A stretch of DNA of 38,043 nt from Escherichia phage ECO95 1-6-1: sequence record OR845259.1. The stretch is one strand, 5' to 3'. The notes beneath the pieces are model-generated. The model was not told where the DNA came from. It saw nothing but the letters and a program-made list of their open reading frames with translations, and made no database searches. This document shows, piece after piece, positions 14,136 through 14,705 of this stretch (positions are counted from its first letter, which is position 1; each line of letters opens with the position of its first letter). The position numbers and the translations under genes were made by a program.

Positions 14136-14300
14136 TTACTCTTCTTTTTCTTTAGATTCCTCTTTCTTCTTTTTAGGAATCTGTTCAGGACCTTTATTTA
14201 CTACAGCGCCCGACGTTGTTCCAGTAGAGATATTTTCAGGATTACCACCTGAATCTCCAGCTACCATATCTTCTTTAATAAATTCTTTATATGTTTTCAT
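14136..14300 (-). CDS. 61.1: hypothetical protein (54 aa), 61.1 position
   Basis: Hand translation MKTYKEFIKEDMVAGDSGGNPENISTGTTSGAVVNKGPEQIPKKKKEESKEKEE; fills the gap; TAATATG junction; below ORF-track cutoff. Confidence 0.6.
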   Translation of the reverse strand: MKTYKEFIKEDMVAGDSGGNPENISTGTTSGAVVNKGPEQIPKKKKEESKEKEE

Positions 14301-14347
14301 ATTAACCTCTATTCATAAAAGCATTAAAAATTTGGTCATCAATAGAT
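14298..14347. repeat. 50-bp direct repeat, copy A (3' end of the 118-aa gene and start of 61.1)
   Basis: catattaacctctattcataaaagcattaaaaatttggtcatcaataga; one mismatch versus copy B. Confidence 0.85.
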
Positions 14348-14658
14348 GGCGCAGTAATATTTTCTGCATCATTTAGCAAATCATTAATTTCATCAGATAG
14401 CATAACACATGTACCTTTATTTCCTGTAATTGTTACTGCACAATTACGAACGTTTTCTTTATTAAATTTTAGGTTAATATTTTCGTAATGAAAATCCTTT
14501 AATGCTGAATATATTTTTAAAATGAAATTGTCTTTTACTACAATAAACCCAACCTCACTATTAAAACGCGGTTCATGGAAGCTGTAATAAACCTTTTCAT
14601 CTATAAAATCGTATGAAATTTTTTCCATTTTTAAATATGAAAATTCAGAACTATACAT
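14302..14658 (-). CDS. hypothetical protein (118 aa), shares C-terminus with the adjacent 213-aa ORF
   Basis: ORF track; C-terminal IDDQIFNAFMNRG repeated in the neighbour. Confidence 0.6.
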   Translation of the reverse strand: MYSSEFSYLKMEKISYDFIDEKVYYSFHEPRFNSEVGFIVVKDNFILKIYSALKDFHYENINLKFNKENVRNCAVTITGNKGTCVMLSDEINDLLNDAENITAPSIDDQIFNAFMNRG

Positions 14659-14705
14659 ATTAACCTTTATTCATAAAAGCATTAAAAATTTGGTCATCAA
14701 TAGAA
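14656..14705. repeat. 50-bp direct repeat, copy B (3' end of the 213-aa gene and start of the 118-aa gene)
   Basis: catattaacctttattcataaaagcattaaaaatttggtcatcaataga; 358 bp from copy A. Confidence 0.85.

Follow-up and report, generated by a model that had tools for sequence, protein, structure and literature searches.

Introduction

Anti-DarT factor A (AdfA) of T-even phages is attributed to LeRoux et al. 2022 (cited in PMC11257639 and PMC9391042). AdfA binds and neutralizes the DarT1 ADP-ribosyltransferase (PMC11257639; PMC9391042). It is one of the few characterized phage inhibitors of DarTG toxin-antitoxin defense. Its gene belongs to an 'anti-toxin island' that T-even phages carry and that comprises dmd, tifA/61.4, sp, and adfA. 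Neutralization of DarT is known for RB69 AdfA(R164H) and T4 AdfA only (PMC11257639); R164H alone turns RB69 AdfA from inactive to active, and T4 AdfA has His at this position (PMC11257639; PMC9391042). Here, we analyzed this locus in a stretch of 38,043 nucleotides (nt) from Escherichia phage ECO95 1-6-1 (OR845259.1; genus Tequatrovirus, T4-like), hereafter called the window. Two adjacent genes, one coding for AdfA and the other for a protein of 118 amino acids (aa), each end in a copy of the same 49-nt direct repeat. This repeat is likely to be the common 3' end of two tandem AdfA-family genes, acting as peptide, ribosome-binding site, and recombination substrate.

The 210-aa gene of the pair corresponds to AdfA (gp61.2): it is a full-length member of the family at the same locus, between sp and 61.1, and has His at the position where the R-to-H change enables RB69 AdfA to bind DarT1. 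The 118-aa gene, or short gene, resembles AdfA in its C-terminal motif, its locus, and a weak similarity to the AdfA C-terminal half. It differs in that the protein is half the size, has Asn in place of His/Arg, and matches the AdfA model only with its tail, as we call the 14 shared C-terminal residues. T2, which carries the 118-aa gene, has been called a phage that 'naturally lacks an adfA homolog' (PMC11257639; PMC11825919).

In T4-type phages, cassettes known as promoter-early stem-loops (PeSLs) bring about modular shuffling and the formation of mini-circles (Arbiol et al. 2010, PMC2839356). As with PeSLs, the short repeats described here flank accessory genes and bound the insertions or deletions (indels) of close relatives (358 nt between the window and T4; 355 nt between VR20 and JS98), and recombination of neighboring copies would release a circle with one gene. 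Unlike PeSLs, which are intergenic and consist of a sigma-70 promoter and a terminator stem-loop, the 49-nt repeat is coding, includes a ribosome-binding site, contains neither signal, and lies at one locus in the matches listed. At the dmd-tifA locus of T4, amplifications and deletions are driven by microhomology (Srikant et al. 2022, PMC9391042). That locus lies in the same island and shares the recombination-made copy-number change and the setting of an anti-toxin arms race, but it involves laboratory events at chance microhomologies of 6–10 base pairs (bp), whereas a conserved module of 49 bp and common natural variants are found here.

Tandem paralogues are subject to concerted evolution through gene conversion, and conserved 'linker' or boundary sequences belong to the modular theory of phage evolution. 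The latter theory, with its boundary sequences, is said to go back to Susskind and Botstein. The present locus is similar to a case of concerted evolution in its sharp island of near identity and its shared synonymous variants, and probably also in its mosaic haplotypes and putative products of unequal crossing-over. It differs in that the conserved stretch here both codes for a peptide under selection and initiates translation, which means that selection and recombination act on the same 49 nt. A tract of 49 nt is very short, near the lower limit for efficient homologous recombination in T4.

A 49-nt repeat at the ends of two adjacent genes

Repeat finding and a mismatch-tolerant pattern search identified the direct repeat in two copies (Table 1), which are identical at 48 of 49 positions and are spaced 358 nt from start to start. 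The initial annotation had described 50 bp repeated with one mismatch, 358 bp apart, at the ends of two adjacent open reading frames (ORFs) with a shared C-terminus. Both observations were confirmed, with the repeat measuring 49 nt and with 14 codons of each ORF inside its copy, differing by R/K at one position. The single mismatch (C at 14309 versus T at 14667 on the plus strand) corresponds to AGA versus AAA on the coding strand. The 38-kb window contained no further copy, and the number expected from 100 shuffles was 0.

All genes around the repeat lie on the minus strand of the window. On the coding strand, each copy reads TCT ATT GAT GAC CAA ATT TTT AAT GCT TTT ATG AAT A(G/A)A GGT TAA T ATG, and thus contains the final 14 codons of one gene (SIDDQIFNAFMN[R/K]G), the TAA stop, a single spacer nucleotide, and the start codon of the gene that follows. 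The 118-aa ORF ends in SIDDQIFNAFMNRG, and the upstream ORF of 213 aa (14660-15301) in SIDDQIFNAFMNKG. The same stop-start form, TAATATG, occurs at the sp/adfA junction.

DNA identity beyond the peptide

In the codon alignment of the two window genes, the same codon was used for 12 of 12 conserved residues in the tail versus 8 of 25 in the body; at the codon-sharing rate of the body, the chance of 12/12 is about 1e-6. The longest identical run was 39 nt in the tail versus 5 nt in the body, and 0 of 20,000 column shuffles reached 39 nt. This codon identity exceeds what the peptide needs, and therefore points to recombination or gene conversion.

Comparisons with relatives revealed mosaic tails. 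In RB51 and five close relatives (loci L037, L039-41, and L044), the AdfA tail reads GAC GAT ... AAA GGT and matches the downstream copy of the same genome at 46 of 49 positions. The AdfA tail of the window reads GAT GAC ... AAA GGT and matches at 48 of 49; the single mismatch is left because two linked synonymous sites are in the state of the downstream copy. The short gene of Sf21 holds the reciprocal combination (GACGAT...AGAGG), and CrRp10 carries the window haplotype on a T4-type AdfA, so that the two variable parts of the module are found in all four possible combinations. A patchwork pattern was also observed in Gaprivervirus, where the two tails differ at 3 sites in VR20 versus 8 in VR25/L027. 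The penultimate codon, which forms part of the ribosome-binding site, tracks the downstream gene: AGAGG precedes 61.1, and AAAGG or AGAGA precedes the short gene, whichever body lies upstream. From these haplotypes, we infer short conversion tracts or crossovers inside the module.

Ahead of the short gene, the ribosome-binding site is in every case a weakened one (AAAGG, or GAGAT, where the last residue is Asp in place of Gly; window and loci L047, L048, and L045), whereas the junction before the next gene keeps GAGG. This contrast holds in both Tequatrovirus and Gaprivervirus. Translation of the short gene may accordingly be lower, or coupled.

Conservation and predicted structure of the tail

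Family members for the tail comparison were found through their bodies or positions, not through the tail. A third protein family, of ~145 aa, has the same C-terminus; in Dhakavirus and Gaprivervirus (JS98, VR5, VR20, and others), its gene is the one that comes next after spackle. Outside the tail, no sequence similarity of this family to AdfA or to the short family was detectable. Homology of its 'medium' body to AdfA or the short protein was considered but is not claimed here, as tail-less hhalign comparisons were unconvincing (P 0.09-0.2); only the tail and the locus are shared.

The core IDDQIFNAFM was unchanged among members of the short family (identity as low as 41%) and of AdfA (as low as 62%) and in all nine 145-aa proteins, and it is invariant at the locus in Tequatrovirus, Mosigvirus, Dhakavirus, and Gaprivervirus. 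In the ten core codons, 17 distinct tail DNAs had nine additional synonymous states but only one amino-acid change, a conservative I/V exchange. The whole peptide can be written S-(I/V)-DDQIFNAFM-(N/K)-(R/K)-(G/D). Invariance of the peptide together with synonymous variation indicates purifying selection on the peptide, not on the DNA. Consequently, the repeat is not a mere junction scar, as its initial description as a recombination or duplication junction would imply; it codes for a peptide that is invariant across three families and four genera.

The tail was detected by tblastn in 675 of 50,697 phage records. Among 60 records listed, there were at most two tail places per record, and those listed matches with an informative annotation or coordinate were all at the 61.2 locus. 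Judging from the matches listed, the repeat is not a general intergenic motif.

AlphaFold models place a helix over the tail (residues 106-115 in the short protein and 198-207 in AdfA), following a low-confidence linker after a beta-rich body. The body of the short protein was modeled with a predicted local distance difference test (pLDDT) score >90. The residue pattern of the tail is amphipathic, with I, I, F, F, and M on one face. The prediction for the tail is thus an amphipathic helix tethered through a flexible linker, and our best guess is that it serves as a docking or effector element common to bodies with different specificities in the arms race with toxins.

A bolder proposal, which we put forward only tentatively and consider rather unlikely, is that a portable docking helix was grafted by recombination onto at least three bodies with otherwise little or no detectable relationship, namely the 210-aa AdfA, the 145-aa protein, and the 118-aa protein. 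If so, its target might be a conserved surface of DarT-type toxins, or a replication factor of phage or host. One DNA would then serve as effector peptide, ribosome-binding site, and recombination handle, and T-even phages would own a built-in means to shuffle and stack anti-toxin specificities. T2 and the ~146 records said to lack adfA would hold a functional single-domain counter-defense gene.

The C-termini of gp43 (...EEKASLDFLFG; 21735-24431, minus strand) and gp55 (34126-34689, minus strand) carry the gp45 clamp-binding motif. The AdfA-family tail SIDDQIFNAFMNRG shows a loose likeness to these clamp-binding C-termini (S-[LI]-D, an aromatic pair, and the C-terminal position), and any relation between them would be speculation.

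Identity of the two genes

The 213-aa ORF results from a mechanical GTG call. An ATG at 15292, one base after the spackle stop, gives a protein of 210 aa and is most likely the true start, since both the TAATATG junction and the length match annotated homologues. The 210/213-aa ORF matched the Pfam AdfA model (PF23813) with 455.7 bits (cut-off 27) over model positions 1-211, which identifies the 210-aa protein, at the level of sequence, as AdfA (gp61.2). At the equivalent of RB69 R164, the window AdfA has His (...NINHIASVYF).

The 118-aa ORF matched the same model with 32.2 bits (cut-off 27) over its last 99 positions (113-211), and its protein cluster bears the stored Pfam label AdfA. Annotators had already noticed a relation: the RB51 record describes the gene as 'similar to gp61.2', and the T2 record labels it gp61.2. 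At the position aligned with the AdfA His/Arg, the 118-aa protein has Asn. Outside the tail, the two window genes are 45% identical in DNA and ~25% in protein. On a plain reading, these values agree with the initial statement that the rest of the two proteins is dissimilar, but a weak similarity to the AdfA C-terminal half was detectable. The Smith-Waterman alignment of the 118-aa protein with this half gave z = 5.9, and 0 of 1000 shuffles scored as well. A tail-less family hidden Markov model gave 16.8 bits versus 6.9 for the best reversed decoy. The two proteins also have in common a VG-I-VKDN-I motif and the predicted order of five strands and a helix, and reciprocal Foldseek matches in BFVD led from each model to the other family (E 7e-5 and 3e-4). 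These observations suggest that the 118-aa gene is probably a distant single-domain paralogue of AdfA.

In the predicted structure of the 118-aa protein, residues 8-100 form a beta5-alpha-beta-alpha body, which a floppy linker (101-105) joins to the C-terminal helix (106-115). Its relatives numbered five in ~5.8 billion clustered proteins and three in 1.84 billion representatives; no bacterial homologue was found in these protein searches, in which the family was confined to T-even phages. An internal duplication in AdfA was considered as well, as its two halves share the VKDN motif and the order of strands and helix, and was rejected on weak statistics (z 2.8, hhalign P 0.002).

A second mosaic block (15100-15330) covers the 3' end of spackle and the beginning of adfA. 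Compared with T4, identity is only 40-60% over the final ~30 nt of spackle and the initial ~190 nt of adfA, while the remainder of adfA is 80-97% identical. The 5' block of the window resembles the RB69 (Mosigvirus) type. The AdfA proteins L042 and L043 combine a window-type 5' block with a T4-type 3' half. The mixed 5' and 3' blocks therefore indicate that adfA, too, is a recombinant gene with an internal breakpoint.

Gene content among related phages

Over this region, the window shares 97.6% identity with RB51/RB68 and related Tequatrovirus genomes. In the window and all related loci examined, the AdfA-family genes lie between spackle and 61.1/primase. The initial annotation had suggested looking for relatives with one copy, and both kinds were found. 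In T4, AdfA is directly followed by 61.1, a difference from the window of exactly one 358-nt period. In T2 (locus L022, MH751506, 2456-2812), the short gene directly follows spackle and AdfA is absent.

In the collection of 50,697 phage records, the short gene was present in 298. It was accompanied by a T4-type AdfA 5' end in 66 records and by a window-type AdfA 5' end in 86, about 150 records thus having both genes. By subtraction, about 146 records have the short gene only and about 160 have T4-type AdfA only. The window's exact 118-aa protein was found downstream of AdfA in some cases and without AdfA in others. Two 3' alleles of the 118-aa gene (...ENITAP and ...EKVAIP) were found in all three upstream contexts, and every combination was seen of upstream state (T4-type AdfA, window-type AdfA, or none), inner junction, and short-gene 3' allele.

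In phages with the short gene only, the 15 nt from the spackle stop to the short-gene ATG read T TAGAGGTTA(A/G)T ATG and contain the last 14 nt of the module with a match of 13/14 or 14/14. From its sequence and position, this module end in T2-type phages appears to be the remnant of a lost upstream gene that bore the tail.

A second group of genera shows the same arrangement. In VR20 (Gaprivervirus), spackle is followed by a 145-aa gene and a 117-aa short gene, both with tails. JS98 (Dhakavirus) is without the short gene and differs from VR20 by one 355-nt indel bounded by the tails, so that indels of one period occur in both groups. Both genes are present in 34 of 86 records of the Dhakavirus/Gaprivervirus group, and the 45-48% identity of the Gaprivervirus short gene fits how far neighboring genes have diverged. 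Because a tail-bearing pair exists in this second group, the tandem pair is probably old, and the single-gene states probably arose repeatedly.

Explanations of the repeat

If the repeat is the common 3' end of two tandem AdfA-family genes, the module would do three jobs. It would encode an invariant C-terminal helix tethered to a variable body. Its last two sense codons would serve as the ribosome-binding site of the next gene, with TAA-N-ATG placing the start right after the stop. As the only long identity between the diverged neighbors, it would also provide a substrate for homologous recombination, and selection on the peptide would keep the copies alike enough to recombine. Recombination could then have three outcomes: the copies would be homogenized by short conversion tracts; exactly one period would be deleted or re-inserted, through unequal crossing-over or through excision and integration of a 358-bp circle; and different upstream bodies would be joined to different downstream genes. 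T4, in which exchange through homology and microhomology is very active, recombines at short homologies in the same region, with microhomologies of 6-10 bp (PMC9391042), and repeats flanking accessory genes excise as mini-circles in T4-type phages (PMC2839356). The initial view of the repeat as a recombination or cassette-exchange module agrees with the one-period indels by which genomes differ here, although the repeat is not solely a junction.

Several points weigh against this explanation. The Pfam AdfA match of the 118-aa protein vanishes without the 14-aa tail, which contributes about half of the score. In the tail-less tests, one reversed-sequence decoy scored equal to the real match, and hhalign for the two tail-less bodies gave P of about 0.002 only, so homology of the bodies is weak. 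The tail helix was modeled with low confidence (pLDDT about 50). The last 13 nt are also constrained by the translation initiation of the next gene, which adds to their conservation, and a genus-specific codon preference could add to the similarity within a genome. Conversion is suggested by only a handful of haplotypes, from about 45 loci. Finally, the change in any one lineage may have been a loss or a gain of either gene, and re-insertion is mechanistically equally easy.

The strongest rival, to which we assign an appreciable but clearly smaller probability, is a recent insertion. The lineage of the window would have gained the 118-aa gene or AdfA by tail recombination from a one-gene ancestor, either through integration of a 358-bp circle or in a cross between T4-like and T2-like phages, and the repeat would be its footprint. 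The exact one-period indel relative to T4 is consistent with such an event, as is the identical 118-aa protein in phages without AdfA. The 13-14 nt of module end before the T2-type short gene offer a possible microhomology for a cross, and the recombination of T4 at 6-10 bp (PMC9391042) and the transfer of mini-circles documented for other repeats (PMC2839356) supply precedents. On the other hand, the tail-bearing pair of a long and a short gene is also present in Gaprivervirus, which makes the pair probably old, and phages with a single gene likewise keep the tail as a selected peptide, so it was not made by an insertion. Recent insertion of the 118-aa gene, as first proposed for this locus, is thus not the most economical account in view of the Gaprivervirus pair. 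It is partly compatible with a common 3' end shared by tandem AdfA-family genes; the two accounts part only over the direction of the event in the window lineage and over its age.

Selection on the peptide alone, with the copies kept alike through peptide and ribosome-binding-site constraint and without recombination, would account for a core that is invariant across families and genera and for the Shine-Dalgarno sequence, stop, and start within the last 13 nt. Synonymous sites, however, vary freely between genera. The 12/12 tail codons against 8/25 in the body and the 39-nt run reached by none of the shuffles are not expected from it, nor are linked synonymous changes that move between copies or indels of exactly one period. 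The codon-level data already contradict this explanation, which we consider highly improbable.

An equally small probability is given to a regulatory nucleic-acid element, such as a promoter, a terminator, a PeSL-like cassette, or a coupling hairpin that overlaps the gene ends. A weak hairpin before 61.1, formed by UCUAUU/AAUAGA pairing and partly covering the Shine-Dalgarno sequence, could be taken in its favor. This hairpin is non-significant (z -1.85 for 101 nt and -0.96 for the 49-mer) and the G-to-A change in the AdfA copy disrupts it. The stretch 13900-16300 contained no terminator-like site, and no promoter-like site lay within 14298-14346 or 14656-14704. Moreover, the variation between genera falls at synonymous positions only, as for a coding constraint.

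Although the public record of phiD1 does hold an artefactual extra copy, duplication of a gene end by assembly or sequencing has a negligible probability here, given that the two-gene, two-tail layout occurs in about 150 independently sequenced phages and in metagenome contigs and that the bodies differ.

Implications

The AdfA family was already known, as was the annotators' remark on similarity to gp61.2; no mention of the short gene, the shared tail, or the module was found in the literature searched. The family appears to be wider than published searches suggest, with a half-size relative in ~300 phages, about half of which, T2 included, have no full-length adfA. The invariant, predicted C-terminal helix common to all members is a target for mutagenesis and for DarT interaction studies. 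The 49 nt mark sites of gene gain, loss, and recombination, and provide a concrete example of variation in the number and combination of counter-defense genes. These results refine the picture of an established family and of a familiar way in which phage genomes evolve; they represent no new kind of biology and are not surprising as genome evolution.

Organization of the locus and further observations

The genes around the repeat are transcribed in the order gp41 helicase, dmd, 61.4, spackle, 213-aa ORF, 118-aa ORF, 61.1, and gp61 primase. The coordinates are collected in Table 1.

Table 1. Features of the adfA locus in the window of Escherichia phage ECO95 1-6-1.
Feature	Position	Strand	Remarks
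gp41 helicase	16148-17575	-	
spackle (sp), upstream neighbor	15294-15587	-	Pfam T4_Spackle, E 2e-44
adfA (gene 61.2), 210 aa from ATG at 15292	14660-15292	-	Pfam PF23813, E 2e-137
Repeat copy 2	14656-14704	-	AdfA codons 14663-14704 (SIDDQIFNAFMNKG), TAA 14660-14662, spacer 14659, ATG of the 118-aa gene 14656-14658
AAAGG, putative weaker Shine-Dalgarno sequence of the 118-aa gene	14664-14668	-	Lys and Gly codons of the AdfA tail; holds mismatch 14667
118-aa gene, RB32ORF033c, phrog_4122	14302-14658	-	short single-domain protein, probable AdfA family
Repeat copy 1	14298-14346	-	118-aa gene codons 14305-14346 (SIDDQIFNAFMNRG), TAA 14302-14304, spacer 14301, ATG of 61.1 14298-14300
AGAGG, putative Shine-Dalgarno sequence of 61.1	14306-14310	-	Arg and Gly codons of the 118-aa gene tail; inferred from position 6-10 nt before ATG
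Gene 61.1, 54 aa, downstream neighbor	14136-14300	-	start codon inside repeat copy 1
gp61 primase	13105-14133	-	

Apparent third and fourth tail copies in Yersinia phage phiD1 (locus L026, NC_027353, 18167-18717) were rejected as most likely a mis-assembly across the repeat. The record contains an additional copy of the 118-aa gene along with a fragment of 33 aa, and the junction contains Ns and an Illumina-adapter-like GATCGG..AGA.C.

In ten Dhakavirus/Gaprivervirus loci (L010, L011, L016-L021, L045, and L046), a second 61.4-like gene (TifA-like, DUF7279; ~3077-3560 in IMG/VR loci) follows the AdfA-family gene or genes, and the first copy lies upstream of spackle. With two 61.4-like copies, the island therefore has its anti-toxIN gene in duplicate as well.

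An I-TevI-like homing endonuclease gene (NUMOD3 and I-TevI DNA-binding domain) was observed at positions 1-720 of locus L027, a Gaprivervirus-like contig (Logan contig SRR14369232_9920), directly upstream of spackle and overlapping it. Double-strand breaks made by such homing endonucleases could drive the co-conversion of adjacent AdfA-family cassettes.

Downstream of the pair, a 66-aa ORF (12908-13108, plus strand) is convergent with the primase gene and overlaps its 3' end by 4 nt. It corresponds to RB32ORF030w/RB69ORF029w, a predicted membrane protein annotated in T2, RB51, and Sf21.

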